A stretch of 64,000 nucleotides of DNA from Botryllus schlosseri. Its lineage: Eukaryota. Position 1 is the stretch's first letter. Every line of letters starts with the position of its first letter. The position numbers were made by a program, and so were the translations under genes. Of the stretch, positions 7,623 through 63,888 are shown in pieces. The notes under the pieces are model-generated. The model was not told the DNA's origin. It did not search any database and worked only from the letters and a program-made list of their open reading frames with translations. The stretch lies in contig CM119371.1 of the NCBI GenBank assembly GCA_051294905.1, positions 25,546,001-25,610,000 on the forward strand, written 5' to 3'.

Positions 7623-8156
7623 AATCGTCAGCAACTAGTAGAGAATTGGAAAGAACATTGTATATCAACAATCGTATCACAAAATATGACGTCACCAGCA
7701 AGAAATTTCGAATGAGAGAGCGTTCAATGTACTATTTTTAGGTGATACACGAACTCCTTTTGTTGACAGAGTTTTGGTTGGTGTATTTTGATAAAAGTTG
7801 ATTCCAAGGCACACAAATGGAATTGTGAACGGCCTCGACCTACGATTCGAAATCGGTCGTCTCGATAATTATTCGCACAAATCGGATTATCCAACAGATG
7901 TTTGCCGATGGCAGAATTAATTGCCTTTGATCGATCAGCATCAATCTTAAGTGGATGAGTTAAGGGTGAGCTTTTCACATCGCGTGACGCACGTGTTCTG
8001 ATAAATCTGGGGACATGTTGGTTTATGCGGTCCTGCAGACGTCTTGACGTTCTTCCCACGTAGCCACAATCACAGTGGCACCTATATTCGTACACTACAT
8101 TACTTTGTTGAAGTGCAGGAAGCACGTCTTTGCGTGTTGAAGGGAGCAGTTGTGTT

Positions 8157-8190
8157 ACCCCTGACGAGTGTCAGCCGAAAATATTCGGGT
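8157..8190 (+). ncRNA. Minimal type I hammerhead ribozyme (Penelope-associated)
   Basis: ACCC-CUGACGA-G(ugucagc)C-GAAA-AUAU-UC-GGGU: intact core, helix I ACCC/GGGU, palindromic AAUAUU helix III. Confidence 0.75.
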
Positions 8191-27000: not shown

Positions 27001-30000
27001 GTCTACTCAACAATTGCTTGAGCTGTGGATGCGGAACAGGTTATTTTCGGTTGGAAAGAAAACGAGTTATTGTGATGGGTCGAAGTCTTAAATAATACAA
27101 ATACATAAAAAGGCGATAATGCTTTGTTCATATACTTACTGTCACTACAAAGATCGTGTCGTATGTGTCGAAGTGAGAGGGGAAGAATACAAAGTAGTCC
27201 CGGTTCCAAATATTTGACTCTTCTACATAAAGTTCCATTATCTCCATACGTCGCATATGGTTCATCGGATCCGTCGCTAGAAAAATATTTATAACGAATG
27301 TATTTGTTGATGCCTAGCCTATAAGCAGAGGATTGTGTGTAAAATTTAGCCAACCGCTGCGGTTTGTCAGGAACATATGCAGTTCTTCCAACTGTCTACT
27401 CTAAATCGGGCGTCAGGCGCTTGTACTACAATAACTACATCGGTTCCAAAATTCCTGCGAATTTGCTCATCGCCCATTTATTCACTATAATTAGCCCACA
27501 CAACCAACTAAATTTGGTTTGTGAGCGCGAACCTATAAATTATCAAGGTTTCGCTTTCCGAACACGAATGCGAGCCGGACGTTCGTAACACCCCCAATGC
27601 ACATTCGCAATCAAATACATGAATATTTTCAGGAAATGAACTAATATGTTCTCGCTCATCATTCAATCACCAATACCTGCAATGTTTATATCCGTCGCAA
27701 AATCCTCTAGGATCAATACACCTCGATCCGTCACTGCACTGGAATTCCTCCATAGAGCAGTGTATACCTATAGAAATAATTATTACAACAATTCACTCCA
27801 TTGCACTAAGTTTGCGTGGAATTACCGGGAATTTGATGATAGCACTACTTGTTGCAATTGCCAACGTTTTTCAATATGATTCAGGTGATCATATATACCA
27901 GTTACGCGATTATGACAAGTGGCTTACAGTTAAAATCGATCAAGCCGCCTCATGCGCATTGCGCACTATCTTTACCTATGATAGTGAAACACAATGACAA
28001 AATAGTTGTATACAAGTCACAAGACAAGCTCACATTATAGTTTTGACTCGAGTCAAGCAACCACCGATCCAAGTACGAGTCCTAGTCAGGGTGCAAAGTG
28101 TCAAGTCCGCATCATGATATTGGGACTCGAGTTCTAGTACTGATCGCCGTGTTCACTGTTCGGTCCCTAGTTAAAGTAATGTTCATCTCACAGTTTTGCT
28201 TGAGGTATGTCGACCCTGATGGGTCGCATTCATATTCTCATACTTTTTCTTACTCGCAACATGTTTATTCAAACAGATAAAAGACAGTTTGTTTCCTTAC
28301 CGGCAGTGAAAGACACAATGTCAATATTGCGGTAACTTTACATTTTTTTCGAAGTTGCCTTGCCCGTATGACACATTGTGATGTGCTCAAAGTAGCCAAG
28401 ACTGCTACTCTAGTAAAAGTAGACGTAGCGACCCAGAATTATACTCAACCACCATTAGAACTGGGACATTTCGAAGCAGAAAATACTACATAACCGGGAA
28501 GTAGAATAAGCTGACTTTGAAAATTATTCAATGAGGTAAATAGTGTTTAAAAGCAGTCGCACATACGCTGCCATTATTCGTAGTCCACACTTGAACTGGG
28601 CAAAATCGAGTACCTGAGTGATTCGATTTAGAATCATGTGTTACGATTCGAGTCGAGTATTCGAGTATCACTCATTATGACATCACAACAGAATGGACTA
28701 TGCCAAAGTTCAAATATGTACCTTTTATGCCACCACAAAGAACATAATGCCTGTTATCCGTTACATTAAAGATACTTTGGTATTGTTTCGACCATACCGA
28801 CTTAATGACACTTCTTGACAATGGTGTGGGATGATGATGACTTGAGAAATGTGTTATTTCCACTAACGCTCGTATATTTGCACTATTATTTGTCAAAACT
28901 ACATTTCTCGTTAGTAAATTAGCTTTCGGTAGCGAGGAGCGTATAATTTCAGTACTCGAAAAAATCATCTTTTATTACTCGACTCGAATCAATAAAATTG
29001 ATACTCGATTCAGATTCGAGTACTCGAATCATTGTGCCCAGCCAGACTCCAAACCCGGAAACTGACATATATGGTGATGGTGTCGAGAACTGGTTTGGTT
29101 TGTGTTGCTATTCATCATACGCAGTAGGTATATATTGTCAACTGCATAAGCAATCGACAGTATAATGTGTTACAAAGAATGCTTTTGGTATCGAACAGTG
29201 GAACAGTGGAACTGTTTTCACTCCGGAACCACCTTTAAAAATGTGTCGGTATGATGACCTCATCCGTATTAATACAAGGCCCGCAGTTAATGAGGCTATG
29301 AGCACTACGTATAAGTTTGTATCGGATACTACCGCATTACCGCATTGCGCGATTAAGAAGTCAAGTGAGAATATGGTAGATCGTATAATGATTCCAAACT
29401 TTTTGCTGATATCTATTTACTGTGATGAAACTATCGTATGGGATACCATATATGTGGCAAGACACTGCCCAAAGGAACATCGTAAACACTGGATAAATAA
29501 TATTGACCGATACTTCCGTGGAAAAGATTTTGGTCACTCCATATATATGGCGTGCTAAAGACCGTCTGCGAATACAACCCATGGTATTTTGGTCTCTCTC
29601 TGAACAGAATGAAGCGCTCTGCTTGTCCGATATAATAGTATTTCCCTTTACTATAGCGCAGCTACCAACAAGTAAGCATGTGTTGGATGGTGCGGACCAC
29701 CGGATGAATACCACTGCTCACGAGTACTCGTGTTACAACTATGAACTCAAAATTTCATATTAAGATATGCCATTGCGACAAAACAAAATTTTGGAGTTTA
29801 TTACCCCACTACCCGATCTTGCTATGAGTAGGGCTGGCCACGATGATCGAGCAGCCTACTCGAATCAGAATCGAGTACTAATTCCAATGATTCGAGTCGA
29901 GTAGTAAAATACGATTTTTCCGAGTACTGAAATTATACACTTCTCGCCACTGAAAGTTAATTTACTAACGAGAATTATAGTTTCAATGCTATTTTCCATT

Positions 30001-36000: not shown

Positions 36001-39000
36001 AAGTCACACACACGATATATGCAGTGATCGCGGACAGTGAAAAGAACCAATTTGGTAGAAGGTTATGTCCTGTCTTTTCAAATGAAACTTTATTATATTT
36101 CATACTTACCGATCCTGCACAATTTCAGCCTTTCATGTTCCAGGTGCAGCGGTAGAATACAAAGGAATGCACCACCCGCAGACTTCCCTCTGCATAGCGT
36201 CTGATTGCTATTGTCAAAAGTGGCATATTGTGTCTCGTCCGACCCATCGCTGTCAAAAGAAATTGTGTTCTGCAAGATTGATTATTCGTCGATTCGTTGG
36301 AGTAATGATACATAGTCATGCCGTGGAATAAGGCTAGATAAGCGACATTGTGCCGCTCTCATCCGACTTCAAACAGGATATGATCATGGACTCTGTGGCA
36401 TTGTTTATAATTAGGAAACGGTAGATGGACTTTTAGTTGAGTGCAATAGATCAGTGGTTCTCAACCTTTTTGTCTTCGCGGACCCCTTTTGGGCCGTCAC
36501 GGGCTCCCGCGGACCCCCGACGTTTTAGATCAATTTTAGCTCAATATTCGCACAATCATCATCTGTATTGTTCAAATGATTACTGTAGGGCTAGTGATTA
36601 GCAGCAACAAAATGACTTCCTATTCATATAGAAATTGGGTTGAATTTCATTATTTCAAAGCGAATTCTGCAACTGCATTTCTTTAAAGACGTGGTCGTGC
36701 CTTGAAAATCCGCACCTTCGATTTGATATCAACGAATGCTGAAAATCCATTTGGACCAGTGGTTCCCATTATTTTTAGACATTCCCCCCCTTTACGATAG
36801 TGAAATATTTCGCGCCCCCTTATTATCATAACACAAAATGAAACCAGAATGCTAGCAAACCCAATGGGTAGTTTGATTGCATGGATGGTTGGTTATGCTT
36901 GATGATGAGAGAATTCTTCAATACGAAATTTGGGCTAAACACATAGTAACAACAACGAACTGCAGGTAAATCGCGCGAAGCGCGAAAATATTTTTCAGTT
37001 GGCCACATCTTTGTTCCCTCCTTCAGATTTTTTCACGCCCCCCAAAAGGGGTGCGTCCCCTAGTTTGAGAACCACAGATTTAGACAAAGAAAGGTGGTGA
37101 CAAATGTAATAATAACGGGTAACGCTTCCGACGACACAATTGGGCATGATCGTACCAATTATGGCACCAAACAATTTTTTTATTGAGCATTCAACGTCAA
37201 GCCTGTTCATTTCTATCTAGCAGACAATCTTGAAGTTATTATGGAAAAGTGGTTATGTATATCACAGGGTAAAATGGATTTTTGCAAACATATTCAAGTG
37301 ACAGTGATTGACCTTACTATTGCAACTGTTTATTTTTTACACAATCCCCAACAAAACAGCAAAATATTTGTATCAGTAGGATATTGGCAATTGGCAGCTA
37401 AAATGAGTCGGCACAGCAGGATATTTCACCTTTGACGGCCATTCTGTTGATTTGAGTTCCACTGCTAATGAACAAAAACTGCCTCGTGATTTTCCTAATT
37501 TTAAAAAAATACAAATTTGGTTAAAAACGATCTTGTAAATTCAGAGGCTTCGCGGACCCCCTGGAAATGCTTCGCGGACCCCCAGGGGTCCGCGGACCCC
37601 CGGTTGAGAACCGCTGCAATAGATACTGTGTACACGAAATTCTAATGCCCGTGTTTTGAAACCAATGTAACACTCGCATTAACGATAATTCGTCGAATTA
37701 TCTCTGTTTCGCATCACAACAACTATTTCATAAGACGGGAATTATTTATGGTCACGCGTCGCTGACTCACGCGTCGCCAACCGTAATTCGAGAATGAAGC
37801 CAGTGGATCCGTGATGGTACCACGGAACGAATTTCTTCGCTCGGTAAGACTCGTTTTCGTGTAAAATGTAAGTCGCCAAAAACGGGGAATTATGTCTCAT
37901 TTGCTGGGTTCGTGGTAGCTGTACTGCGCGACTGCCTATGAAAAGATGGACTTTTTAGAGTTTATGAGGTGGACTGGGGAAGAGTATGATCGGGATTTAG
38001 TTCATGAAAGAATACCGAAACGTCGACTGGCAGATTTGCAAAACCCTATGGAAAATATCTCTGACGACCAATTTAGAGCGCGCTATCGCTTCACAAAACA
38101 AGGCCTTCATGACTTCATTGCGATCATTCAGAATGACTTCAGACATTCTAGTAAAGGCGTTGCTCTACCAGTACTGCATAAAATGTTGATATTCTTACGC
38201 TTCACAAGCAGCGGTTCTTTTCAATTGATTCTTGGTGATTTGGAAGGCATTTCGCAGCCGACAGTATCAAATGTAATAAAGGACGTAAGGAAGTGATGGT
38301 GGTCGATGGCTTGCCCGTTTGCAAATTTAGTTATTTTCATTTACAGGTTTCAAAAGTCATAGTTGCTAATCTTAGGACTTTCGTACGATGGCCTCATTCC
38401 AACCTGCAGAGTGTGAAGGAGGAATATTTTGCTATCGCGTCATTTCCAGATGTGATAGGTGCAATTGATTGCACTCATGTTCGTATTCAGAGTCCAGGTG
38501 GTGAGAATGCAGAACGGTTCAGAAACCGAAAAGGCTACTTCTCCGTAAACTGTCAGGTGAATATCATAACTGTGATTTATAAGCTATAGCCATACAGGCA
38601 AAACCTGCATCAAGCCTCTATAACAATACCTATCAATAAATATATCAAGTATTTTCATATTGCAATATTATATGACAATATCGATATGTTACAGCGTACA
38701 ATTTGTTGCAGGTTTGGAGGATTTCTTGAAACTATATTCAATTTCTAGTAATATATACCTTGTCCACTATGAAACTTGTGCAAGATTTGCATACTATAGT
38801 AATTCACAATACCAATACATGCATTCATGTTTCAGGCTGTATGTGATGCTCGACTTATCTTCACCAACATTTATGCTAAATGGTACGGCTCTGCACATGA
38901 TTCGAGGATATTCCATAATTCTGCATTGTATGGATATCTGGAAAATCAGTCGACCTCAAATGGATTGCTGCTGGGGGACCAAGGATACCCGTTGACTAGT

Positions 39001-42000
39001 TATCTGATGACACCATTACGCAATCCCTTGCGTCAGCCTGAACTGTCGTATAACAAAAGCCACAAAAAGACCAGATTGACAATTGAGCGTGCATTTGGTG
39101 TTTTGAAGAGAATATTTTCCTGCCTAATAACAGGCCTGAGATTTAAAATCAGCACAACTCTACATGTAATTCCAGCTTGTGTCTGTATGTACAACTTCAT
39201 CAGGCAACGTGGCATGATTGAGGCATTATTTGATGAATTAAGGGATGATGAGATGGACGATAGTGATGTTTTGCCACAAGGCCATCGTACAGATTACGCA
39301 CAAGCTTCAGCGACCCGTCAGCAACTGATAAGATTGCACTTTACATCTGTGCAGAGCTAAATCTGACCTGATGCTGTTGCAATTCATATTATTCCAACTT
39401 TCAATACAATTATTTTTCCTGGAAAATGTTGATGTGAAATTAATGGTCACCCTAGAATGGTAATATCAAGACATTCTTGCTGAGGTAGATAGAAAAATGT
39501 TCCTCGAAAAGTGCTCAGGTTCTTCAGAAAAATGTTCCTAGAAAAGTGTTCCGGTTCTTTCAAAAAGTAGGTTTAACAGAGAGATTGCATTCTTATGGCA
39601 GCAAAATGGTGGCTACTGATTCACAAATTACAATGCGGTTTTGCGACTAATGCAAAATGACTTGTGGTGATACTACAAATGGGTATATCTCGAAAAGATA
39701 ATTCCGTCATCCTGATACAGGCACACCAGTTCATGGCAAACCTGTAACAATGTCAGTCAGAAAAGTGATGCAAACTCATGACAAAACTACTTTCAGAATG
39801 GTGTTAAGTAATTAGTAGTGCATCAAGAACCATTCAAGTAACACAGAACCTACTTTTACGGTGTGTAGAGACTCCTCTAACTACCACCTCTGGTGATATG
39901 TTGCTGATAAATATAGCTTGTCAAACTGTAAATATCGTTAGCTAGCTATTACTGATATATATGGCACTTATAGTAAAGTGAACGCTTCGCAATCTGACCA
40001 ATAAAAGACATATACGTCTTGAAGCAGGCATTTATTCAGTGGCAAGGGGCAAGACCAAACTTATAGGCAAGATGAACAACGAACATACAAGAGCAAGCAC
40101 AGCATCAACACAAACACATATAACGGCAAGCACAGCATGAATTGGAATTGAGGCAGTTAGCGGTAACACATGAAGCGAGTACAAAAATACACGAGGCAAT
40201 TGGTAGGCAAAAGTCTGAAGAATACAAACAAATGTACAAAAGGATACCATAATAATCAGGCATCATTACAGATATGTATCTAGCTCATGTGGAGCAGTAA
40301 CATTGACATTGACATTAACATGTGACATTCCTCTCTTTTGTCTGTAGTACATAACCAATTATTGTTATTGAATCTAAATCCATTACGCATGATTGATAAC
40401 CATACATAAAATTGGCAATTACTAGTTTCCGCGTATCTTTTATGTTTGGGACACTGAACCTTTTGACCATTAATGTCTATTGTTTGTTGCAACGCTGCTC
40501 CAGTTCAATATCTGCCAAACGCAGCTTTTTGTTGAGCCGCTCGATCTTTTTCTGCAGCTTGATGGTTTGCAATTTGTAAAGCTCATTTCTTGATTCCGAC
40601 TCTTCATCAACATGGAGTTTTCTCTTTGCAGAACAACCAGGTTTTCCAGGTGCTGTCTTGTGAGAAGCTTGTTTCTCAGGAGTAGTGGCATACATTGTTA
40701 ATGATTTTGAAGAGATGGGATGTCTGCTTGACTCAGCAGATAGTAACGAGTCGTCAGAAGGTGCGGTGCTCGACGGAGATAACACCTCAGCGGTCAATGT
40801 GATCAATTCATCTGAAATCAAACAAGACATACTTGGTGACACATGTACTTTCCATGAGGTGATACTTGTGACTAGAGCCCGACCGATTATCGGCTCGCCG
40901 ATATTATCGAGTCGATATCACGCTTGGAGAGAAATATCGGTATCGGCCGTGGAAGGTAAAAAAATATCGGCCGTTTTCGTGACGTCACAACATGGTGGCA
41001 GGGAGTCAGAGAAGTCGATAGAAGACGTGAGGACGGTAAATTATAAAAAATAAATGGCCATGCTGCACATAGTGCATACTTCATACAGGCAGTAGGCGTG
41101 CCTGTCTGAAAAATATTATGGATTACTAACCACCGTTATGCCCCACTGACTTTGTGGGAATCCCCCTACAGTAATCGATCACCATGAAGACAGAGAGCTG
41201 CTGGGTGGATTGGATAGTTGTCTGCCGAAGATTTCAATCAGTAAGAGAAATGAGAACATCAATCATGCTGGACTGACCCTCGTGATGATAGAGAAAAGCG
41301 TCTCGTCGAAACATTTCTCGGAAGATAGTGCTATTGGTTCGGTACCAACAGAGCTACCAGTAGTGTATGAAGTCGTCTGACTGAGGCCTTCGGGGCCACC
41401 ATGATAGGAAATATGCGAGCATAGAGGGCAAGAAAATCAAGCAAACGTGGAGTAAAGCCAATAATTGATACGAAAATTTTTAATTCCATGATGACATAGG
41501 CCAATTCTGACAAAAGAGCGTAAAATATTGATCAATTGATTGTTTGAATGCTGGTCATGGTCAAAGCCCAAGGGGGATGGGTGGAGCAGTTGCAGACGTG
41601 GACAATTTCAGTTGTTTTGCACATTCTCTTCATCTATTTGTTAACGATGTGCTGAAGGCTCCAGGTGCACTGCCAGAAGAATATCAATAATAATATCAAT
41701 ATTTGGTGAAACCATTGAAGGAAAGATCCCCTGCAAGGGAGCGGTGGAACCGAAATGAAGAAAGATTTCCAATTCTTGCTGTGCCACTAACTATGGTACC
41801 AAGTGAAAGACTGCTCACTATGTTTAGTACTTTATACATCATTTATGGAAGACCACAGAAGTTCATTCCTTGGAGAATGAGCCGAGAAATTGTGCTTCGT
41901 GAACTGTAATCTGCAACTGCTGGATTGGTGCTATTGATATATTTTTATTGCCCCTAGATCATTTATTTCATGTTCAAGCATATCAATGGCTGTAAAGTTG

Positions 42001-45000
42001 TTGAAATAAATGCTCTGAGTTGTTAAAATTGGGCATTGAGCTAGATTCCATATCTTTTGAATATCGGCTGAATATATCGGGGTTATCGGTGGAGGTACTG
42101 GATATCGGTCTTATCGGTATCGGCTCAGAAATCTAATATCGGTCGGGCTCTACTTGTGACACATGTATTTTGCATGAGATGAACAGATAAATGATGGGGT
42201 TAGAGCTGTGCGTTAGGGTGAAAAATGGTAAACTAACACTGAATCAATTACAAAGCCATGAATTTCGACATGTTTACGGGGAGCCGGATTGTTGATGATC
42301 AGGTTGAGTGAATAATAAAGTAGACTATAAACCCCAGTATGCTATATAACAAATTTCTATGCACTGCGCAGACTCACAGAGATGTAAGCGGGCATATATG
42401 TGAGTTCGGACACGTGCAATTGGCATGTGCATGTCATTACTTTATTAACAAGTTCTTGTTAATGTTCTTTCAAGATTACTGCATCACTCCAATCTCTGCA
42501 TGCATAATTGTATATGCTCAAAACTGCTTGCATCTCTGATGTGGTGCATACGAACTATAGCATACGATTGTGATTCTGCTCTAGAATTGTATCTAACATT
42601 CAAATGACTGCTCAGCTGAGCTTCTGATTACCAACCTTTTTCTGTACTTGCAATGAACCCACCAAACTGCGGAAAAGAAACTCTTTCTGTGTCCAACTCA
42701 GAGTCTGGTAATATTGTATTGAATTGAGCGGGCTCCATTGCAAGCAGCTGGAAATGGAATTGCACTATTTAAAATGAGAAACTAGACTAGCAATTTTCAG
42801 AAGGAACCCCCGACACATCGAAGGGAAGTTGGCCTACAAACCATATTTGAAATTGGAGATAAATCGTGATCCTTGAAAGGCCCACCTCCAGTCTTGAAAT
42901 TTTCTTTATTGATATACGTCATTTGTTTGGCTGCCTTTGTCTTCATGTTTTTGTATAGAACTCGGAGCTTCGTCCAATCACTGACATTTCTTGTATTTCT
43001 ATCGATATTGAAGTCCATTTGAATTTTTTTTCCAAGCTGACTCCTTGACATTGCATATGGATCGAGCGGTCGATCTATCCAGTAAAATCGGTGTCTTGGC
43101 CACCAAATTGACCAATAATTCCTTTTCATATTCTGAATAGTTGGTTCTCTTTTCTCCCCTCTTCTCAGAATCCATATTCGATAAGATTGCGTGTATGACT
43201 CTAAACCAGTGGTTCTTAACCTTTTGTCCTTCAGCGCCCCCTTTCAAAAATTATCGTGCTCCAGCGCTCCCCCCCCCCCAACCTCATATTGTAAGGAATG
43301 TAATAAAGATAATGAGAAAGACGGAGGGCCGTAACAGCACTTCGCCAACCCTCTAAAAACGACTGCCTTGCGCACCCATAGCGTGATAAACCAAACTTCT
43401 GAGGGCTTCGCCCACAAGAGCCCCGTAGCGTGATGTCGATGGTCAGCAAAGTTTGTGTGACCTGGTCGCCCTAGGTACCAAAATTTTCTATAATGCATGA
43501 ATGAATAGGTGGTAGTTACATATATAAGCCGCTATAAATTTTTTATCCTCTCAGCCAACGAAATCAGATTTACCAGTAGCGCTGATCGAGCTGTTGTATG
43601 GGAAAATAAAGGGCACGTAATTAATAATTAAACGTATTCGGGCTTGCCCGTAGGTACAATTAGTTCGTTACCAGGGACGTAACAGCACTTCGTCAGCCCC
43701 CCCTCCAAAAAATAAAAATAAACGTTGGTCTTGGGCCCCCATCGGGTGATAAATCAAACTTCCGGGGGGCTTCGCCCCCAGACCCCCATTCTGTTATCCG
43801 CTATTTGCTGATACTAGTCATCTACATTGGGTGTCCACTGTCCATTTACTGAGCCAGCTATGCTCATAGACGCGTGAAGCGCGAAAAGTTTCAATAATTA
43901 ATGATTGAATTGGTCAATATAATCGGGAATTGCATGTATATTGATATCACTTTTTATGCTCTCTCTTCTCACGTAAACAAATTTACCTGTAGAGCTGAGT
44001 GATGTGTGATTGAAAAGGTAGGTCCCCTCAATAATAATTATACATCTCCGGGCGTATACCCGTTGGCAGGACCGAAACGGCATTTCGTCAGGCCCGCCGA
44101 AAAAACTTGGGTCTTAGGCTCCCATAGGGTGATAAACCGACCGCCCCCCATCACGTTGGTCGCTTTTGCCACGAAATCAGCTGTACTGTTTAGCGAGCCA
44201 GTGCGAAGCGCGAAAACTTATGATAATTCATGATAAAATCGGTCAGTAAGATCGTTAATTGCATATATATTGCTATCAATTCCTTGTCCTCTCTGCTCAC
44301 GTTACCAGATTTACCGGGAGAGCAGAGTGAGGTGCAATGTTTGCTCTAAGTTGCGCAGGTGCGCAGTGCTGACACGGTCTCTGCGCACAGAAAATCTACG
44401 TTGCGCACAACAAATCCGATGTTATGAAATTTTTGTAGTCGTTACGCACTGTTGTCCAAGGGTCTACGCAGTGAGTTGAAGAGTGTGCGCAGACTCATCA
44501 AAACGTAGAGCGAACATTGTGAGGTGTCTTCGAAACTGTAGGGCCCGTAACTAATAATTAAACATATTTGGGCGGGCGAACCCGTTGGTATGACTTCATT
44601 GCATGATGTTATTTCGTGACCTCCTGTCTGCTATATATCAAAAAATATAGAATCGCCCATCAGGGTTATCGCCCGACAGGAATATCTAGTTTTAGATATC
44701 CCTGTCGCCCAATCGTAGTAAACTAAAAGACGCACACGATTTCAAATTGGTATTTCTTCACTGGCATACAATTTTTCCCCGCCAGATGGAATTCCTCTTC
44801 TTGGGTTCAGATTGCCAAGACAGGAACATTCGGTGCCAGTCATTTAGGCACCCATGGACAATTAAACCTATATGTATTTTATAGGCTATCAGGGGCGGGC
44901 AACTTCTCCAATCTGCGGGCCGGATATACGAAAATTAGGTACTTGGCGGGCCGGATTGCTGAATCGATACATTATTCGCCATTTATCCACATATACAAGG

Positions 45001-48000
45001 AATACATCGTATTTAATGTGAATGTATTTTAACGACAGCAATGTCACTTCAAAGCCATTTCTCGCCGATAACGACGAAGACAATGTGGATTTGATAACAG
45101 CATTGTCATAGAGGCGCCGCCATGTCTGCTTCTATCTGATCAATCAACACCAATGGATGCGGGTTCGAGTCCGACCGAGGTCGACATCTGAATTCCGATA
45201 TCTAAGTGTTGGAGGTTTACCTAGGTTCCTCCTCGCCACCTCATCCGCGTCAGCGGTGTCTTACAAAAAGCCTAGAGGTGGGCTGTGCTATATGTCGGCA
45301 GCTACGGAAAATAAGAAGATTATCGGCCTGGTGTAAATGACCAGTCGACAAACACCATGAATACCCCAAAACAAACAAACAAACCAGGGATATCTAGAAC
45401 TAGGTTTAGATATCCCTGAGCAACACGCGGTGCAATCCCTAATTAAGATTTCAAGGCGTTCGGAAACCCCGGTACGCCTAATTTACCAAGATATCAATTC
45501 ATTAGGGTTGAGTAGGTGACGAGATAGCGTCGTTGTTCAACTGTGTGTCCTGATTAATCTCGATATTGAATTCATGCGGTCCACGTCCTCTACGAAATTT
45601 GAAAAGTGGCCCGCGATTTCTTTTGAGTTGGCGGTCCCTGGTATAAACGGTGTCTCATTAGGGTTACCATACGACCTCTTTTTTGAGATTTTGTCCACTT
45701 TTTTGAGATATTGGTTAAATATATGGCAAAATCGACTGAGATACAGTAAATTAACACTGAAGTAACGCTCCAGCGGCTATTTCGGGAGATGAGCCGGAAA
45801 ATTTATCTTTTTTTAGTCAACCAACTGATAATGTGAAAGGAAAAACTGTATTTTGGGCGCTGAGCGAGAAAATTGACCTTTCTTATTTTTAGTCAACCGA
45901 CCACGAAGTGGGAAAAATTTAAAAATTTTTCAGAATTTTCCTCCGGTTTTGCAAGTCTGAAAATTTTATAAAATTGTCCTTTTTTATATTTCCAAAATAT
46001 CGTAACCCTACGTCTCACAAAAGCCTAGAAGTGGGCCGTGGTACAAATCGGCGGTTACAGAATGAAAAATACGAAATATCAGCCTGGTGTAAATGACCAT
46101 TGTAGTCGACAAACACCATGATTACCACAGACTACATCAGGGTTGAGTACATCGTAAACGCCGATAATGCAAGTCTTTTCGCTTCGACGAACTTACACGT
46201 TAGCTCCACTCTCGCACGCTGCGCATACACGTGTATCATAACATACAGTCACTTAAATTTGACGTAATAGGCAAGTTGTGGGAAATCTCGGCAGACTGGG
46301 GCCGCGGGCCACATTATCATGTAAGACGGAAAACTCTCTGCGGGCCGGACAAAATCCCTTCGCGGGCCATATGTTGCCCGCCCCTGGGCTATATATAACG
46401 AAGATTTCGGTTTTAATTTGCTCTGAATACTCATTAAGGAAATGTCCTACCACCACATCATCTACTGCGAAGCCATTTTTCTCCAGCGCCCCCGAGCCCA
46501 GCGCCCCCCATTTTCCCTGAGCCTTTCCGCCCCCTTCAAAATCGCCAGCGCCCTAGGGTTGCATCCAGGGTTGAATTTAGAACATATACCAATTTAAAAC
46601 AAAAAAGTTTAAAACAAGGCCATTGTTTGAAACATGTTTTTATTCTTTTTCTGTTGTTGTTGTTGTTGTTTATTTTAGGCCATGACGTCACGAATATTCA
46701 ATTGTGAAGTCATAGTGGATTACCATTGACAATTGAAAGTATAGGGCAGTGGTTCTCAACCTTTTTGGCTTCGCGGACCCCTTTTGACCGTCTCGGACCC
46801 CCGCGGACCCCCTTAAGTTTTAGTTCAATTTTAGCTCTATTATGATGCAACCTTCGTCTGTCTTGTGAGTAGTGTAGTAGATCGGTCGTGGTGTGCGCTT
46901 TTTTGCATGGGGTAGTATAGGCGGGGTCGCGAGCGGGGGTGGCGAGCGGCTCTTATGTCTTATGGCGGGGGTGGCGAGCGGCTATTGCGTCTTATGGCGG
47001 GGGTGGCAAGCGGCTCTTATGTCTTATGGCGGGGGTCGCAAGCGGCTGGGAAACCGGGGGTGGCAAGCGGCTATTATGTCTTATGGCGGGGGTGGCAAGC
47101 GGCTATTGTGTCTTGTGGTCGCACGGTAACCCTATTCAGCATAGGGATCGGTCGCACGCGGCTTCATTGTTGACATGTCGTACTTTCGGGTATAAACATC
47201 TCTCGTGTGGTGGCTTATGGTTGCGTTGGCATGTCGTACTTCGTGTTGAATATGTATCAAGTAAATAGTCATGTGAATGAACCTCTGTCATGTATTCTTA
47301 CGGGATCTCTGGTGACCTGCCATTGTTTCTTATGGGATCTCTGGTGACCCCACCCTTTCAGGTATAGGGCTCGCTCATGACCTGCCGTGAAAACTCGTGT
47401 TGGTGACTCCACCCTTTTCGAGTCCCTATCGCTGATGACCTGCCGTCTCGTCGGTGACCCCACCCTTTCGGTATAGGCTGCGTTGGTGAGTCGTATTTTC
47501 AGGTATAGGCGGCGTTGGTGAGTCGTATTTTCAGGTATAGGCTCCGGTCGCATGATAGCGTTACAGAGATAGGGATCGGTCGTATGCTAACGTTTTCGGG
47601 TGTAGGCTGCGCTGACATGTCGTACTTTCGGGTATAGGTATCTCTCGTGTGGTGTCTTATGGCTGCGGTGACAAGTCGTACTTTCAGGTATTTAGTTTGC
47701 CACAGAGCCGGCGTAGACGGTGATTCAAATACCAACAATAGCCGCGTTCACATACTAACACTTCAAAAAGGTGTGAAATATTTGTAAAATCCTACGATCG
47801 CCCACAAGATAACACCTCAGACATGGTCATCTTTCACGACTTGGTGTCATAACCATACCGATCGCTCACGCGGTGAAATTTTAGTAATCAGTTTGTCACA
47901 GAACTTGATTTCGCTGGTAAGATTTAATAAGTAACGACTAACAGAACCGCCGGTGTCGGTAACTTGAATAGCAACAAATTGTCACTTATTTCAGTCCTAA

Positions 48001-51000
48001 CCCTAATCCTTTGTGCAGTTACCGCATACTCAAATAGGTGTGAAATAATTGTAAAATCATACGTTCACTGACAAGGGTAACGAATAACAGAACCACAACG
48101 GCGGCGACTTGAATACTATCAAATTGTCAATTGCTGGTATAACTCGAATCTTTTTAAGAGTATAATCCTTTTGAAACTGAATATTACTTGACTTGACCAA
48201 CTTTCAACTCCGTTTCCGGATCATTCAAACATTCCACGCCGCTGTTTTAACACTTATAGAATCAATACCAACTATCTCTAACCCGATAATATTCAATCAT
48301 TTTGGTAGTTTGCCAACTTTAAATCCGTTCGTCAGATGTACTACAGGTAACTGAGATAATCAAAAACGAAATATTTTGACTTTGACACAGTATCGAAATG
48401 AAACTCACTACACAAATCAAGTTGATTCGTATCTGAATGTGTTGATTCGGCACAACCATTATCCTCTGAGAAATCTTTTTAACGTAATCTTTTGAATCGA
48501 ACGTAACCTGAATATTACCGACGCCGACTTTCAGCCACATCGAATTATTCACACATTCCACGCCGCTCTTTTCACACCTATATAATCAATACCAACTAGC
48601 TGTATGAGAATCAAGAATCACAAGTATGCGCATATAGTAATTGTATTCATTATTGAGAAATCAAACGCTTAATAAAAACACGCAACTTATCATTTGCCAA
48701 CTCTAACATTACCAAAAAATCAGGTGGGTCTATTATTGATTGAAAATCCTTGAGTCCTTATTATCAAAAATGTTATAGTGCGGCGTCGGAATCCATTCGC
48801 GGGGTGTACTGAAGGTAAATTCAGATAATCCGAAATGAAATATCTCGACTTTGACATAGTCTGAATTGAAATAGATTGACAAACATAACTACCAACTTTC
48901 ACCCAGTCACATTTCGAAATTATACGCATATTGATTTGAAACAAGTAATGACATATTACAACTATATTCGCGATCGAACTTTCCGTTTGGCGAAGATAGT
49001 TTCAGAAATACTATCACTATAATATCTCAACATTTTAACATCTTGCCATACACAAAAGAGTAAAATACAAAAACCTTGTCAAGTCAATCCGTTTGTAACT
49101 TACCCAACCAACTCAACAGTATCCTTATGAAAAGTAGACAAGACTACGCGAGTAATCACCACAATCCAAAATCCATAACAAGTTCGGTTGTATTCATAGT
49201 CCGCCAACTCGTATTTTTTTATTCAACTGTAAAAGTCGTTACTATTCTGTAACCTAAAGTAATTACTACTCGGTGCGCACAACTTGAGATTAACATATGT
49301 TTTGAGTATATGATATTTGAATGTCTGACCGATGTAGTTAAGAATTCATTTCTTACGATCGAACACCGGTGTTACATTGAAAGTTATCATGTTGTAAACA
49401 TTCTTATTAACACGTTGGTTTGACATACGAGATTTTGTAATAGTTGATCACGACTTGATTAATAAATTATGACGTAATTAGACCGGGGTTGTGTTAAAAC
49501 TTATTACGATACCAACAAACTTTTCAGAAACATTGTTATTAACATATTGATTTGTAAAACTACGCGCGCCTGAAATGTTCTTGATTTGAAAGATATTCCG
49601 TGTTGTTACAAATCACTCTGCGTATTACGGATATCAGAAAATATTTTTACAAATGTAGTTGTTGCCAGTAACCAAGAATAAAGATGACACAACAATTTCG
49701 TTATTCAAACATTGAACACCCGATGCAAAATGCTTTATTGGTCAAATTCGCAACGGGTAATTGAAACGACTAAGTGTAGAGTCAGTATATCACAATGGCA
49801 CGTCGTTACTATTGAATCCAGCAATTGATACGATTTATTGTCGGGATTTGTGACAGCGCATTGAAACATACACAACTTACAGAGTGTGAAAATATCACTT
49901 TGGGTATCGAGTACCGTTTGAAGCGTGCGATCAATACATAATTCCGTTCGCACTCTCTAAGACGTTGTGAAGTCTACAGATTTACACTTCAAGACTTTGA
50001 TCAACACAGAAGCAATTTGGAATATCTTTACTGGACGCATCCTATTCTACTAGACTTGAGTAATACACAAAACTCATAGCATTAACAAAATCGCAATAGG
50101 CGCTACACTGAAATCTACAAAATGTGTTTGTATTGTTGTTAGTGATCATAAATTATCATTTGAATAAGTAATTGTAATCATAAAACCAAACTTGCGAAAG
50201 TCATTACCATAACAAAAGAATATTGTAGGTTGCTTGCTAAATGTTTGCCGGAAATATTTGTAGAACGCTCACGACCAAAGAAATCGGAAATCCCCCCCCC
50301 CCATTGTCATTCGTCAAAGTATATGTTGTCACAATACTCATCCCGTAAAAGATCTTACCAACCATCGTCGAGGAGGTGTTTTATTCAGACATTTTGACTC
50401 TGGAAAATCCAAAGCACGAACCCGGACATCACAGAACTATCGAAGCCTATTGTCCAATTTTCCAAAACATGCATTTCGGTGTACAAGAGCATATTGTATG
50501 TGGTTAACCGATGATATTGATGTGATACGACTAGTGGGGGTATACTCTGAAACCGGTAGTCCGTGTATATTTCCGTCACTGTTCGTTGTAATCTATTTCA
50601 AACTATCGTCAATACAACAAATACCAAATTGTCAGGTGTGTTAGTCAGATTTCAAAATGAAAATGGTTTTGTTACTCTAGGAAAAGCTAGATGACCAAGA
50701 GAAAATGTATTGTTACACTGGGTAAACGCCAGATCTCCAAAGGAAAATGATATTTTTACTCAGGTAAACGACGACCCACCAAGTGAAAATGGTTTGTTGC
50801 TCAAGGAAAAAATATATTTCCAAGTGAAAATGGTTTGTTGCTCAGGGAAAAAATATATTTCCAAGTGAAAAAGGTTTGTTACCCAGTGAAAAAATATATT
50901 TCCAAGTGAAAAAGGTTTGTTACCCAGAGAAAAAATAGATTTCCAAGTGAAAACGGTATTGGTATTCAGGTAAATGATAGTTTTCCAAACGAAAAGGGTT

Positions 51001-54000
51001 TGTTACCCAGGGAGAAAATATATTTTCAAAAGAAAATGATTAGTTACTCTAGGTAAAAGTATTTTTCCATGTGCAAATAGTTTTTTGCTGTAGGAAAAAA
51101 ATAGATTTGTAAACGACAAGGGTTTGTTACTCTAGGAAAGGATAGATCGCCAAGTGAAAACGATAATTTTACACAGGTAAACGTCAGTTGTCCAAACCAG
51201 TATGGTATTTTTGACTTGGGTAGGTATCTTGTGTTCAACGCTGGTAGTGTGATTGGTCTTGTTAAACGCAGTTTCCGAGTTGTACAATATACTTTTCGTG
51301 CTTATACAATTACGAAGGGGGCGGAAAATGAAATTGCTATTATGATCGTCAGAAGATTGTTGTATGTTGATTTGATTTGTCGGAGTAGCAAACCTATCAT
51401 TCGCATATGACAAGCAAAATCATTACTGCGAATACATGTAACTAACTTGTTCGGTCTCTATCAACGCAAAAGAGATGATTCGTTTTTGAAACCGTAGCGA
51501 AGACCACATGTAAATCTATGCGATAGACTTCTATTTCCTTACATTCAGTCGTGTCGTGTCCATTTTAATACGGGGGCCCACAGGTATGACATGCACACAC
51601 TAACACCGTGAACAGAAATCGATGATTTTGATTAATAAAAATATTTCTTGACTACATCGGAATGTCTATGTTGTAGAAAGTAAATACTTTTATGGTGTTG
51701 TGTGTTTAATGAAGGCGATTGGTTACAAGTATGTTTTGGGAAAATAAAATTTATTTATCTGTATGTGGCAGTTTGTGAGGAAATGAAAATAGATCCGTGG
51801 TTTTAATTGGTTTGTGACTGTGTTGTTTTAATGTACAGGTAGACTTGACACTGAACAACAATTCGACTCACAAAAAATGTTTGTTGTATGATTTGTCACT
51901 GGTGCGCAAAGCGTTAGGAATATTTTTGTATGATAATATCTTCTAGCTTTTTTGTTGTGAGGGCAATCATACGACGACTCAGAACTTTTCGTTAGCAAAG
52001 TAGATTGATCGATATGAAAGATGTAAGGACCGTGACTAGAAATATGTGTACTTTGTTGTTGGAGTAGCTGATTTACTGCTATGGCATTGACATAACCCGC
52101 TGGAAGTGAGTATGCTTTTCTTTCACGAAAGTTTACGTGGCTCCGTTGTAATAAATTTGTGTTAACTAAACTCGGATGGATACCACAATTGTGCTGGACT
52201 TACACATGGTATTCGTATACTGTACACATACAAACTTTTGTGTAAACAACTCTGGTGTTTCTGTTAATACTAGTTCTGTGTTGAACTACTTGATTATTAA
52301 GATACATGAACAACCATTCAGACAATAAAGTTCTTGAGGTATCGAAACAGTTTGAAAGCACCACCAATCATTGTACAGGTTTGTAGCATGGGAATATCGA
52401 TTATTTTCGTTTACCATGAATATATTTCATATACCTTTGGTAAGAAATGAGTTGCGTGGGGTAATCATAAACAACCTACAAAAGTTAAACTTGTAGCGTT
52501 TGATTGCCTACTTTTTTATCATTGTTTGTTGTTAAAAGACGACTGAGTTTACATTTACACATAGTAAGTGGAGAAACTCAAGTAATAAATTTTACTCGGT
52601 TGAAAATATCGATCAATGGAGTAACAGTATCAATATGAGTGGTATATTATTTTTCGCGATATGCAACAAACCTTCTAAGTAAACTTGTCAAAAATTTATC
52701 ATGTCATAGTCGGTTGTTATGAAATCGAAACAAAAGTACTTTGATTATCACGACAAAGGGAGTTGAGATGAATGCAGTATTTCGGAAGTGAATGTGTATC
52801 GTTTGGTATGTTCAGCAATCACTAAATGACCAAAATATCAAACTGTGCATACAACTCGGTTAGTTAAACGATAGAGTTACAAGTCGGATGTAATCTCGAT
52901 TTACAGATGACAGCTTGATGATGTAAAGCTCAACCACTCAAATGTGTTCATTGCAAAGTATTTGACACAAACAAAATATCGAACGAAGACCCAACACTGG
53001 GTTTCATTACCGGGTGAGTGAAAATTGTTTCCTGTTGGCTAGGTATGATTTGCATTTAGAAAAAACGATCTACGCCGATTAAGCGACACTGTTTAATATC
53101 CGATGAGTGAGTGAAATTTCTTAGGGTTTGATTTAGCGTGTTAATTACCGGCGATTCAATGACATACAAGTAAGATCTTTTACGGGATGAGTATTGTGAC
53201 AACATATACTTTGACGAATGACAATGGGGGGGGGGGGGAATTTCCGATTTCTTTGGTCGTGAGCGTTCTACAAATATTTCCGGCAAACATTTAGCAAGCA
53301 ACCTACAATATTCTTTTGTTATGGTAATGACTTTCGCAAGTTTGGTTTTATGATTACAATTACTTATTCAAATGATAATTTATGATCACTAACAACAATA
53401 CAAACACATTTTGTAGATTTCAGTGTAGCGCCTATTGCGATTTTGTTAATGCTATGAGTTTTGTGTATTACTCAAGTCTAGTAGAATAGGATGCGTCCAG
53501 TAAAGATATTCCAAATTGCTTCTGTGTTGATCAAAGTCTTGAAGTGTAAATCTGTAGACTTCACAACGTCTTAGAGAGTGCGAACGGAATTATGTATTGA
53601 TCGCACGCTTCAAACGGTACTCGATACCCAAAGTGATATTTTCACACTCTGTAAGTTGTGTATGTTTCAATGCGCTGTCACAAATCCCGACAATAAATCG
53701 TATCAATTGCTGGATTCAATAGTAACGACGTGCCATTGTGATATACTGACTCTACACTTAGTCGTTTCAATTACCCGTTGCGAATTTGACCAATAAAGCA
53801 TTTTGCATCGGGTGTTCAATGTTTGAATAACGAAATTGTTGTGTCATCTTTATTCTTGGTTACTGGCAACAACTACATTTGTAAAAATATTTTCTGATAT
53901 CCGTAATACGCAGAGTGATTTGTACCAACACGGAATATCTTTCAAATCAAGAACATTTCAGGCGCGCGTAGTTTTACAAATCAATATGTTAATAACAATG

Positions 54001-57000
54001 TTTCTGAAAAGTTTGTTGGTATCGTAATAAGTTTTAACACAACCCCGGTCTAATTACGTCATAATTTATTAATCAAGTCGTGATCAACTATTACAAAATC
54101 TCGTATGTCAAACCAACGTGTTAATAAGAATGTTTACAACATGATAACTTTCAATGTAACACCGGTGTTCGATCGTAAGAAATGAATTCTTAACTACATC
54201 GGTCAGACATTCAAATATCATATACTCAAAACATATGTTAATCTCAAGTTGTGCGCACCGAGTAATAATTACTTTAGGTTACAGAATAGTAACGACTTTT
54301 ACAGTTGAATAAAAAAATACGAGTTGGCGGACTATGAATACAACCGAACTTGTTATGGATTTTGGATTGTGGTGATTACTCGCGTAGTCTTGTCTACTTT
54401 TCATAAGGATACTGTTGAGTTGGTTGGGTAAGTTACAAACGGATTGACTTGACAAGGTTTTTGTATTTTACTCTTTTGTGTATGGCAAGATGTTAAAATG
54501 TTGAGATATTATAGTGATAGTATTTCTGAAACTATCTTCGCCAAACGGAAAGTTCGATCGCGAATATAGTTGTAATATTTCATTACTTGTTTCAAATCAA
54601 TATGCGTATAATTTCGAAATGTGACTGGGTGAAAGTTGGTAGTTATGTTTGTCAATCTATTTCAATTCAGACTATGTCAAAGTCGAGATATTTCATTTCG
54701 GATTATCTGAATTTACCTTCAGTACACCCCGCGAATGGATTCCGACGACGCACTATAACATTTTTGATAATAAGGACTCAAGGATTTTCAATCAATAATA
54801 GACCCACCTGATTTTTTTGGTAATGCTAGAGTTGGCAAATGATAAGTTGCGTGTTTTTATTAAGCGTTTGATTTCTCAATAATGAATACAATTATTATAT
54901 GCGCATACTTGTGATTCTTGATTCTCATACAGCTAGTTGGTATTGATTATATAGGTGTGAAAAGAGCGGCGTGGAATGTGTGAATAATTCGATGTGGCTG
55001 AAAGTCGGCGTCGGTAATATTCAGGTTACGTTCGATTCAAAAGATTACGTTAGAAAGATTTCTCAGAGGATAATGGTTGTGCCGAATCAACACATTCAGA
55101 TACGAATGAACTTGATTTGTGTAGTGAGTTTCATTTCGATACTGTGTCAAAGTCAAAATATTTCGTTTTTGATTATCTCAGTTACCTGTAGTACATCTGA
55201 CGAACGGATTTAAAGTTGGCAAATTACCAAAATGATTGAATATTATCGGGTTAGAGATAGTTTTTTATTGATTCTATAAGTGTTAAAACAGCGGCGTGGA
55301 ATGTGTGAATGATCCGGAAACGGAGTTGAAAGTTGGTCAAGTCAAGTAATATTCAGTTTCAAAAGGATTATACTCTTAAAAAGATTCGAGTTATACCAGC
55401 AATTGACAATTTGATAGTATTCAAGTCGCCGCCGTTGTGGTTCTGTTATTCGTTACCCTTGTCAGTGAACGTATGATTTTACAATTATTTCACACCTATT
55501 TGAGTATGCGGTAACCGCACAAAGGATTAGGGTTAGGACGGAAATAAGTGACAATTTGTTGCTATTCAAGTTACCGACACTGGCGGTTCTGTTAGTCGTT
55601 ACTTATTAAATCTTACCAGCGAAATCAAGTTCTGTGACAAACTGATTACTAAAATTTCACCGCGTGAGCGATCGGTATGGTTATGACACCAAGTCGTGAA
55701 AGATGACCATGTCTGAGGTGTTATCTTGTGGGCGATCGTAGGATTTTACAAATATTTCACACCTTTTTGAAGTGTTAGTATGTGAACGCGGCTATTGTTG
55801 GTATTTGAATCACCGTCTACGCCGGCTCTGTGGCAAACTAAATTCCTGAAAGTACGACTGGTCACCGCAGCCATAAGACACCACACGAGAGATACCTATA
55901 CCCGAAAGTACGACATGTCAGCGCAGCCTACACCCGAAAACGTTAGCATACGACCGATCCCTATCTCTGTAACGCTATCATGCGACCGGAGCCTATACCT
56001 GAAAATACGACTCACCAACGCCGCCTATACCTGAAAATACGACTCACCAACGCAGCCTATACCGAAAGGGTGGGGTCACCGACGAGACGGCAGGTCATCA
56101 GCGATAGGGACTCGAAAAGGGTGGAGTCACCAACACGAGTTTTCACGGCAGGTCATGAGCGAGCCCTATACCTGAAAGGGTGGGGTCACCAGAGATCCCA
56201 TAAGAAACAATGGCAGGTCACCAGAGATCCCGTAAGAATACATGACAGAGGCTCATTCACATGACTATTTACTTGATACATATTCAACACGAAGTACGAC
56301 ATGCCAACGCAACCATAAGCCACCACACGAGAGATGTCTATACCCGAAAGTACGACATGTCAACAACGAAGCCGCGTGCGACCGATCCCTATGCTGAAAA
56401 GGGTTACCGTGCGACCACAAGACACAATAGCCGCTTGCCACCCCCGCCATAAGAGATAATAGCCGCTTGCCACCCCCGGTTTCCCAGCCGCTTGCGACCC
56501 CCGCCATAAGACATAAGAGCCGCTTGCCACCTCCGCCATAAGACGCAATAGCCGCTCGCCACCCCCGCCATAAGACATAAGAGCCGCTCGCCACCCCCGC
56601 TTTCCCAGCCGCTCGCAACCCCGCCTATACTACCCCAAAAAAGCGCACACCACGACCGATCTACTACACTACTCTTGTGCAAATGAACTGTAGGCTTGTG
56701 ATAAACAGCAAAATCATGTTTTTTTCTCGAAAATAACATCATACTATTTATATAGAAATTTTTACCGCATAACGCTTATGACGATACTTTTGGTGTGATC
56801 GCAACATTTATGGCACCAATATGAAGAAACATATATTTTATGATCATATCACGTCCAGCATCTAGCGCAGGGACGGGCAACATACGGACCGCGAGCCGGA
56901 TTCGCCCCGAGACGGAATTTTGATCGGCATGCAGAGAGTTTCCACCTTCAAATTGAAATACGTATCTAAAAGTACAGACAAATTTTATCTGCCAAAGAAT

Positions 57001-61536: not shown

Positions 61537-63888
61537 CAGGGGTGGGCAATTATTTTCCTCCGCGGGCCAAATGAGAAAAATAAATACGTTGGCGGGCCGA
61601 ATGAAAAGTTTTAGCTATATTCTATAGCGTTTTTTAATTTTATTTCCGAATTACATTGTTACTAATGAATGCGGCTCAGTAGATGTTTTGATATTAGGTA
61701 ATGAGAAAGTGACGGTTAATTAAAAAATATCTATTTGCTGGAAAGGATTCGAAACAACATTTTAGCTCTCTTCCACGTTCTTCTATTAAGACTCTAAAAC
61801 AGTGGTTCTCAAACATTTTTGGGCACGCCTCCCTTCCGGTTGGTGAAGAATTCCGCGACCCCTTATCAAGATATCACAAAATATTAAAAGGGCAACTAGA
61901 ATGTTGGCAATCCCAACGGATAGTTAGATGGCATGAAAGATTATGGCTGTTAAGGAGAGAACTGTGACGTATCATAGTCGGACAATACACAGAGCAGCAA
62001 CTACAAGCTGAGGGTATATCGCGCGGAGCGCGAAAAAATATTTGTGCAACCCTTCTGATGCTTTCACGTCCCCCAGTTCGAGAACCACTGCACTAAAATG
62101 TATATGCAACAGTGTTGGGACGACTCGAGTCATGACTTGACTCGAGTCAGACTCGAGTCACCTTTTTCGTATGACTTGACTTGACTCGAGTCACTTTGCT
62201 AAAATGACTTGACTTGACTTGACTCGGCGTATAAAAATTGTGGATTGACTCGTGACTCGGAGCAAAATTCACGAGTCAATTTCAAGTCATCAAGTAATCG
62301 GTGTCGATAAAAATCCCTGTATCTTGCATATGGTCGGACTGTTCGCTAAATGCTGGTGTAACCCGTGACAGCGACCAATCTTTCATTGATCGTGCGCTTT
62401 GCTGAACCTCCATTGTTCTCTCACAAATAAATTGACCGCAAACGAAGTGATTGAATTTTACAGATTACGTTGTCGTAAACTAGTACAGTAGAGTAATTTA
62501 ATAACAAAATGTCTATTTCTGTTCTCTGTTCTTTCCCTAACCAAACCTCATGTTTTATTGAAATTGAATTCAACTATAGTTAATACAGTCCTCATCCATT
62601 AACGTAGGCTTGAATAGTATCATATCAATTTGTAAATGATAATGTATTGCATCTTATCAATTCGTTTCTCTATTCTCTATTTTGGCTGGTAGCTATAAAC
62701 TGAGGCTGTGTAATTACTTACGTAGTTTAGCAGTTCTACGTATATGTCAGCGATACAGCACCTTATTGGGTGTATATTTAACTCTATATTCGCTCATTGG
62801 TTCAGAATCAATGACCACCCAATCTGTATTTCAAGCAGATAGCAAAATGCAATGACGTAATCATGCCACATACTTCAAAAAGACAACTTGACTTGAATTG
62901 TGACTTGACTCGTGACTTGACTTGACTTGACTTGACTCGACTTGACTCGACTTGACTCGACTTGACTCGACTTGACTCGACTTGACTCGACTTGACTCGA
63001 CTTGACTCGACTTGACTCGACTTGACTCGACTTGACTCGAGTCACCTCCAAAAATTGAGTGACTTGACTTGACTCGATTCACTTCCGAAAATCGATTGAC
63101 TTGACTTGACTCGAGTCAAAATCTGCAATGACTCGAGATGACTCGTGATTCGAAGGTAGTGACTTGATCCCAACACTGATATGCAATAGTATAAAGCTTA
63201 TTTTCTTGGTCTCTGCCTTCCGAGGAGTGTGCAGCTTAAATATAGCCTTTATATTGAGCGAAGCTTTTAGTTTTTCTGAACTTCGCCCTCCCTTGACCGA
63301 GTGCTTCGTGGTTTTGTCATAATACTGACTCAGGTATGCGACTATTTAGTGCTCTAAATCCTAAACCTAACTGCCGAAGTCTGTAAACCTCGATTGGTCG
63401 TATCGTACCTTCTTTGAGTTTTAGTTTTCGGCTTTCTTTTTTTGGCATGCCCGTTAATCATTTATGCGTGATAGATATGATAGATAGTAATATAGATAGT
63501 AATCGCGAGCACTGATTGACTTGTTTTACGAATTAGGGATTTGTTGACCACATTTGAACCACATACCGTATAATGCGTAATGTGACAATGGCATCAAGGA
63601 AGGTTTGAACTAAACTATATGGAAAAAGTGATTTCTTGTGACTTAAATTGCTGCTCATCCTTTGCCACATTGCCTTTATTTTAAATCTGGATTACGCATG
63701 CCAAGTATGTAGGCAGCGTAATCGTGGCATATTAATGAACAGGCTTCAAAGTAAACGAATTTCCTGTTCATTTGATACAGCCTATGGTTTTAGTCATTCA
63801 AACAGCAAACGTTATGTTTTGAATTCCAAGCAACCTTTCGCGGGCCGCACAGAACATAGCTTCGCGGGCCGCACTTTGCCCAGGTCTG
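61537..63888. mobile_element. hAT Buster/Charlie-type element with nested MITEs at 61800-62090 and 62110-63178
   Basis: Outer TSD CATTAGGC; nested TSDs C(T/A)CTAAAA and ATATGCAA. Confidence 0.9.
62910..63042. repeat. (GACTTGACTC)n expansion within a MITE subterminal region
   Basis: About 11 perfect 10-bp units. Confidence 0.95.

Follow-up and report, generated by a model that had tools for sequence, protein, structure and literature searches.

How an insertion with the ends of a virus-like transposon came to consist mostly of its own inverted repeat, and what its unpaired middle represents, are the questions raised by a 9.8-kb element at 46868..56673 in a stretch of Botryllus schlosseri DNA (GenBank assembly GCA_051294905.1, contig CM119371.1, positions 25,546,001 to 25,610,000 of the forward strand). 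These 64,000 nucleotides are referred to as the window, and all coordinates are counted from its first letter. An earlier note, made from the letters alone, had described a Maverick/Polinton-like element in which 3.5-kb terminal arms had been lengthened around a 2.8-kb core. The evidence presented here points the other way: the left arm appears shortened relative to the family to which the element belongs, the core appears to be mostly inner right arm, and the element most likely derives, by shortening on one side, from a larger, nearly all-palindromic, gene-less satellite with Maverick/Polinton ends.

Self-BLAST of the window yielded a single inverted pair of this kind, 46867-50358 against 56674-53170, with 98.7% identity across 3,509 columns. 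The left arm (46868..50358, forward strand, 3,491 bp), which begins with (AGT)2 and whose inner end seems to have been cut short, and the paired part of the right arm (53170..56673, reverse strand, 3,504 bp), which finishes with (ACT)2, enclose a core of 2,811 bp, for a total of 9,806 bp, of which the inverted repeat makes up 71.3%; right arm and core together measure 6,315 bp. The termini read AGTAGT on the left and ACTACT on the right, and CTTGTG abuts each end (46862..46867 and 56674..56679, both on the forward strand) as an exact 6-bp target duplication, a 6-mer match that occurred at two fixed points in 154 of 400,000 random flank pairs (~4e-4). GC-rich subterminal tandem repeats with a 32-bp unit lie at 46933..47118 (forward strand, six copies) and in mirror position at 56415-56600, and a second 32-bp repeat of 2.5 copies occupies 47466..47543 (forward strand; mirror 55990-56067). 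Counting only rows within the arms, 24 substitutions and 5 indels of 1-12 bp separate the two sides. A simple fold-back artefact is unlikely to account for arms that differ at these 29 places and for a direct duplication linking unlike flanks. The insertion is real, with virus-like Maverick transposon ends and no recognisable gene, and the termini, duplication, subterminal repeats, arm and core lengths and inverted-repeat share of about 71% given by the earlier note were all recovered by self-BLAST and tandem-repeat analysis.

The element does not stand alone. Among the 24 public runs listed, 20, from 10 studies, hold part of the stretch, the best holder being X1 with 64% of the sampled words; one run has more than half of the words and may be the source of the sequence. 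Three contig runs (X1, X5 and X15) and one RNA run were placed on 45700-53169 at 88% likeness. Of the 548 variant rows, 400 joints, 4,111 loose ends and 126,389 pieces obtained, the comparisons below use 40, 15, 24 and 24, respectively. In X1, 176,377 contig pieces were placed, a figure from which no copy number is readable, and 30 of 30 bins were covered in all three contig runs, with hundreds of variant sites. The element belongs to a very abundant multicopy family. The earlier note's description of a young, gene-less and presumably helper-dependent element with a Maverick/Polinton end motif and a 6-bp duplication is supported. No loose end fell at 46867 among those listed, and the right flank lies outside the stretch compared. 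Runs X10 and X15, whose labels name two other organisms, contain 31-33% of the words sampled (46868-53169); X15 shows the same variant letters, and the content of both runs could represent a related species or carried-over DNA.

Comparison with this family bears directly on the core, which is probably not the unique middle of the element. Foreign sequence before 50356 is common to all three contig runs (89 contigs in X1, 5 in X5 and 1, with 188 loose letters, in X15), and a 20-letter piece of it has no match in the window at up to three mismatches. One X15 contig tracks the arm to exactly 50358 and then departs from it for 45 further letters. The left arm has a GC skew of -0.11, whereas the core (+0.15) and the right arm (+0.12) are skewed the opposite way and the flanks are near zero; the cumulative minimum, where the sign changes, falls near 50477 and not at the midpoint, 51770; the skew is about zero over 50359-50645, the first ~290 bases of the core, and +0.16 to +0.21 over 50646..53169. 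The median summed depth of the core relative to the arm is 1.59 in X1, 1.38 in X5 and 1.62 in X15; summed contig depth is not the same as copy number, and these ratios of 1.4-1.6, set against the ~0.5 expected of a single-copy centre, argue against such a centre. On the basis of GC skew and summed depth, 50646..53169 (reverse strand) would be unpaired inner right arm, with an uncertain inner boundary between about 50507 and 50650. Most of the core thus behaves as inner right arm, and the right junction appears to be the normal path of the family.

The left junction preserves a further trace of what was lost. A stub of a reading frame, 49 codons and a stop with its start missing (50358..50507, forward strand), begins exactly at the junction. 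Its one relative is P0010, the 79-aa product of a 5.5-kb ENA contig, to which 40 of 47 residues are identical over residues 29-75 (E 8.8e-20). The loose letters that precede 50356 in the family encode, on a by-eye reading, residues 19-27 of P0010 exactly. As the stub matches P0010 from residue 29 and the loose letters supply residues 19-27, the frame is cut at the junction, and in P0010 it extends 28 residues further. Relatives of 87-2,000 aa and a Pfam match were sought for the stub and none were found; an Atlas search gave no usable match (best score for P0010, 0.76), and the single-sequence predicted fold of P0010 is unusable (pLDDT 39.7). The stub is probably a remnant of the central segment of the parent. 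Taken together, the other letters before 50356, the cut frame, the right-arm skew of the core and a core depth at least equal to that of the arm indicate that the left junction is derived.

The same observations weigh on the model in which the core is a unique interior and template switching extended short terminal inverted repeats (TIRs) to 3.5 kb. That model would account for arms much longer than normal Maverick TIRs, and for the likeness of their inner parts, since only 2 of the 24 substitutions fall in the inner 1.4 kb, as would be expected of a newly added segment; it is nevertheless very improbable, given a family with other letters before 50356, a reading frame cut at that point, and a core with the skew of the right arm and a depth no lower than that of the arm. 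The template switching invoked by the earlier note could still lie behind the junction, though in the form of a snap-back that truncated the arm instead of lengthening it.

The history of the arms can also be read against the family. At 16 listed variant sites of the left arm the family letter differs; 12 of these are identical in both arms and 4 are confined to the left arm, the right arm carrying the family letter there. Eleven of the 12 shared sites have the other letter at 70-100% of X1 depth, and the twelfth has it in X5 and X15 only. Since both arms share letters unlike most of the family, homogenisation took place once this lineage had separated from the family's bulk, and the arms have drifted by about 0.7% since then. 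The substitutions and small indels that the earlier note saw between the arms are present, but they are not evenly scattered: of the 24 substitutions, the outer half holds 18 (KS p=0.009; a pattern observed post hoc). CpG decay was rejected as the cause of this gradient, because only 4 of the 24 are CpG transitions. The gradient would fit a history in which the inner left arm was synthesised anew on the right arm as the junction formed.

Several points weigh against a one-sidedly shortened palindrome. Among the pieces listed, no contig spans either junction, and the strand-change joint that it predicts, 53169/50358, is absent from the 15 joints listed. The depth ratios derive from a quantity that cannot be taken as copy number, the 16 arm sites come from variant rows chosen by the tool, and the 3-base match at the join has a chance of about 2% on its own. 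The palindromic form of the parent and any helper are postulated, and the outer-to-inner gradient of arm differences counts as a further point against it. Missing spanning contigs, even in the best holder, X1, would also be expected if the insertion were real and its left junction were an assembly mis-join or a chimeric read in a difficult palindrome. This absence, however, rests on the 24 pieces listed, and a fold-back read is not expected to produce arms that differ at 29 places or a direct target duplication with different flanks, so a mis-join is highly improbable.

Coding searches agree with the earlier note that no gene resembling Polinton proteins is present. In Pfam, none of the 12 stop-read-through frames taken from the left arm and core brought a family to its cut-off (two weak matches, E 0.02 and 0.08), and PHROGs gave no match in 12 of 12 frames of 47700-53169, although heavily frameshifted gene relics could escape both frame searches. 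Residues 240-700 of core frame +3 matched no protein, Rfam gave no match across 46868-53169, translated searches confirmed no related locus and found no Maverick gene or helper, and the terminal motifs had no match among viral contigs and metagenome contigs. A minus frame with few stops at 51720-52379 was not accepted as a gene, since 20 of 100 simulations did equally well; a deep search with it returned two matches, namely a 36-residue match to P0001, a lone 64-aa ENA product that probably represents related non-coding DNA, and a bacterial repeat protein with no relation to the element. None of the runs listed as holding part of the stretch was an RNA run. In the RNA run placed on it, of which about 6% was read, 1,150 reads were placed on 45700-53169, 32 of them at 99% or above, with a depth of 0-8 inside the element, and no inference is drawn from them.

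Foldback elements combine long arms, internal tandem repeats and an absence of genes, and those of the Mutator type leave target duplications of about 9 bp. Long gene-less arms with internal tandem repeats, and searches that returned no Maverick gene or helper, would therefore suit a foldback-type non-autonomous element of another DNA-transposon superfamily with convergently Maverick-like ends. The duplication here, however, is 6 bp and not about 9 bp, and among vertebrate Mavericks no signature is commoner than (AGT)2//(ACT)2 ends paired with an exact 6-bp duplication (PMC8097293), which makes a foldback origin very unlikely. The Maverick end motif is defined as (AGT)2//(ACT)2 or (AG)3//(CT)3 (PMC8097293), and the element shares the former, the perfect 6-bp duplication and the terminal inverted repeats with Mavericks of vertebrates and of the anole (PMC8097293, PMC3014272). 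It differs from them in having no frame for protein-primed DNA polymerase (pPolB), integrase, ATPase, protease or capsid, in its total length (9.8 kb against 12.7-24.6 kb) and in its paired arms, which at 3.5 kb lie far beyond the TIRs of 46-1,447 bp in intact vertebrate Mavericks. Since the core genes were searched for and not found, the element is not an autonomous Maverick; it appears to work like a non-autonomous one.

Maverick replication and integration are themselves inferred from adenovirus, with little direct evidence. Palindromes of about 13 kb are probably the usual form of the family, each arm measuring ~6-6.3 kb and the short centre containing a small reading frame. Replication of its members would start at either end, both ends serving as origins, and rely on the protein-primed polymerase of a helper Maverick, whose integrase would insert them and produce the 6-bp duplication. 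The displaced strand may anneal to itself as in adenovirus panhandle replication, and copying through it would keep the arms alike. In this copy, one event would have fused left-arm position 50358 to the middle of the central reading frame through a 3-base microhomology (50356..50358, three bases compatible both with the left arm and with the family sequence that runs into the core). The junction is observed; the loss, estimated at ~2.5-2.8 kb from the inner left arm together with a portion of the centre, would have left the inner right arm unpaired, so that it appears as a core.

Two routes to such a junction yield identical sequence. Host repair may have deleted part of the palindrome asymmetrically once it was inserted; this route is tentatively favoured, with somewhat less than even chances, and gains support from long palindromes usually undergoing asymmetric central deletion (PMC8701086, PMC8327919). 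The other route, possible but less probable, is an asymmetric snap-back while the element replicated, with insertion afterwards. A self-primed snap-back of this kind in helper-driven, protein-primed replication, after which the 9.8-kb form integrated, perhaps repeatedly, as a satellite's satellite, is likewise on the unlikely side. A related model dispenses with the palindromic parent and takes the left part to be a fresh copy-back, in which copying of a linear element's right end ran on for 6.3 kb before the copy folded back on itself. This would predict the same junction evidence, and asymmetric snap-back genomes with a single-stranded loop are known from adeno-associated virus (AAV; PMC8235507), but by depth the inner segment matches the outer arm in abundance, and no Maverick gene is left within the 6.3 kb, so that a non-palindromic parent is quite improbable.

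Several known systems share features with the element. Non-autonomous and gene-depleted Polintons are in print: a non-autonomous zebrafish Polinton is named as Polinton-1N1_DR in PMC9341505, butterfly polintons that lack polB or have ~2-kb TIRs have been described (10.1101/2025.02.07.637071), TIR-only insertions occur in C. elegans (10.1101/2024.01.15.575659), and a protist holds gene-poor fragments with TIRs and duplications (10.64898/2026.07.28.741278). Like the zebrafish and butterfly elements, the present one retains its ends, has lost replication genes and is apparently still mobile. The 2-kb TIRs of the butterfly polintons, however, carry hexon and protease genes, whereas the arms here are longer and non-coding and the parent appears almost wholly palindromic. 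The AAV snap-back form likewise involves a helper-dependent genome, one end copied back and a single-stranded loop (PMC8235507), and adenovirus panhandle replication shares terminal repeats that re-form an origin (PMC9863843); both concern transient virion DNAs, in contrast to a germ-line insertion with an integrase-type footprint and an abundant family. Deletions of chromosomal palindromes in mouse transgenes and on the primate X (PMC8701086, PMC8327919) share the loss of the spacer and of one arm's inner part as well as breakpoints in non-repeated sequence, but here the palindrome is itself a mobile element. No description of palindromic multi-kilobase Maverick derivatives was found in the literature covered, which left aside most subscription papers, Repbase and supplements, and no palindromic satellites are described in the accessible parts of PMC6431247, PMC3014272 and PMC5499653.

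Further features lie within the element and beside it. In the first part of the putative inner right arm, units of 41-42 bp that show partial dyad symmetry form a degenerate tandem array (50646..51200, forward strand), which folds no better than chance (z-score -1.57; 6 of 100 shuffles equally good). A search for an inverted remnant inside the core returned no long one, the longest being 29 nt. At 52094-52157 other family copies hold a different segment, with loose ends on both sides in X15 and on one side in X1, which suggests a second small rearrangement within the core of this copy. Each arm also contains older internal direct duplications of 78-89% identity (48174-48280/48505-48604 and 47171-47241/47613-47683), indicating a modular build, and a short dispersed repeat at 46741-46866, 82% alike to 36446-36571, directly precedes the insertion site.

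Elsewhere in the window, a head-to-tail duplication of about 4.7 kb with 97.8% identity occupies 18832-28268 and consists of a repeat that has GACTCGAGTC-rich modules and recurs at 62110-63180. A partial DDE_Tnp_4 transposase (38803-39360, forward strand, E 1.3e-24) and the neighbouring reverse-strand frames 40477-40917 and 42797-43243, for which no Pfam match was found, are probably a decayed PIF/Harbinger element. The reverse-strand frame 7724-8170 has a weak GIY-YIG match (E 0.02), is bracketed by an inverted pair (7550-7624/8155-8230, 76 bp, 98.7%) and resembles a Penelope-type fragment. Additionally, two long reverse-strand frames at 1033-2726 look by eye like gag-pol remnants of an LTR retrotransposon (LTR, long terminal repeat), with no Pfam match.

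What surprises is the family, from whose usual form this copy probably departs as a derived state. A family that is abundant and gene-less, with Maverick ends and arms homogenised over several kilobases, defines cis requirements and points to self-annealing intermediates, and the present copy matters chiefly as a derived state, one that shows how such palindromes shorten and offers a testable junction. If the snap-back route were true, the junction would preserve, in the germ line, a trace of how defective Maverick genomes form, and a map of such junctions throughout the family would reveal how these elements copy their DNA.

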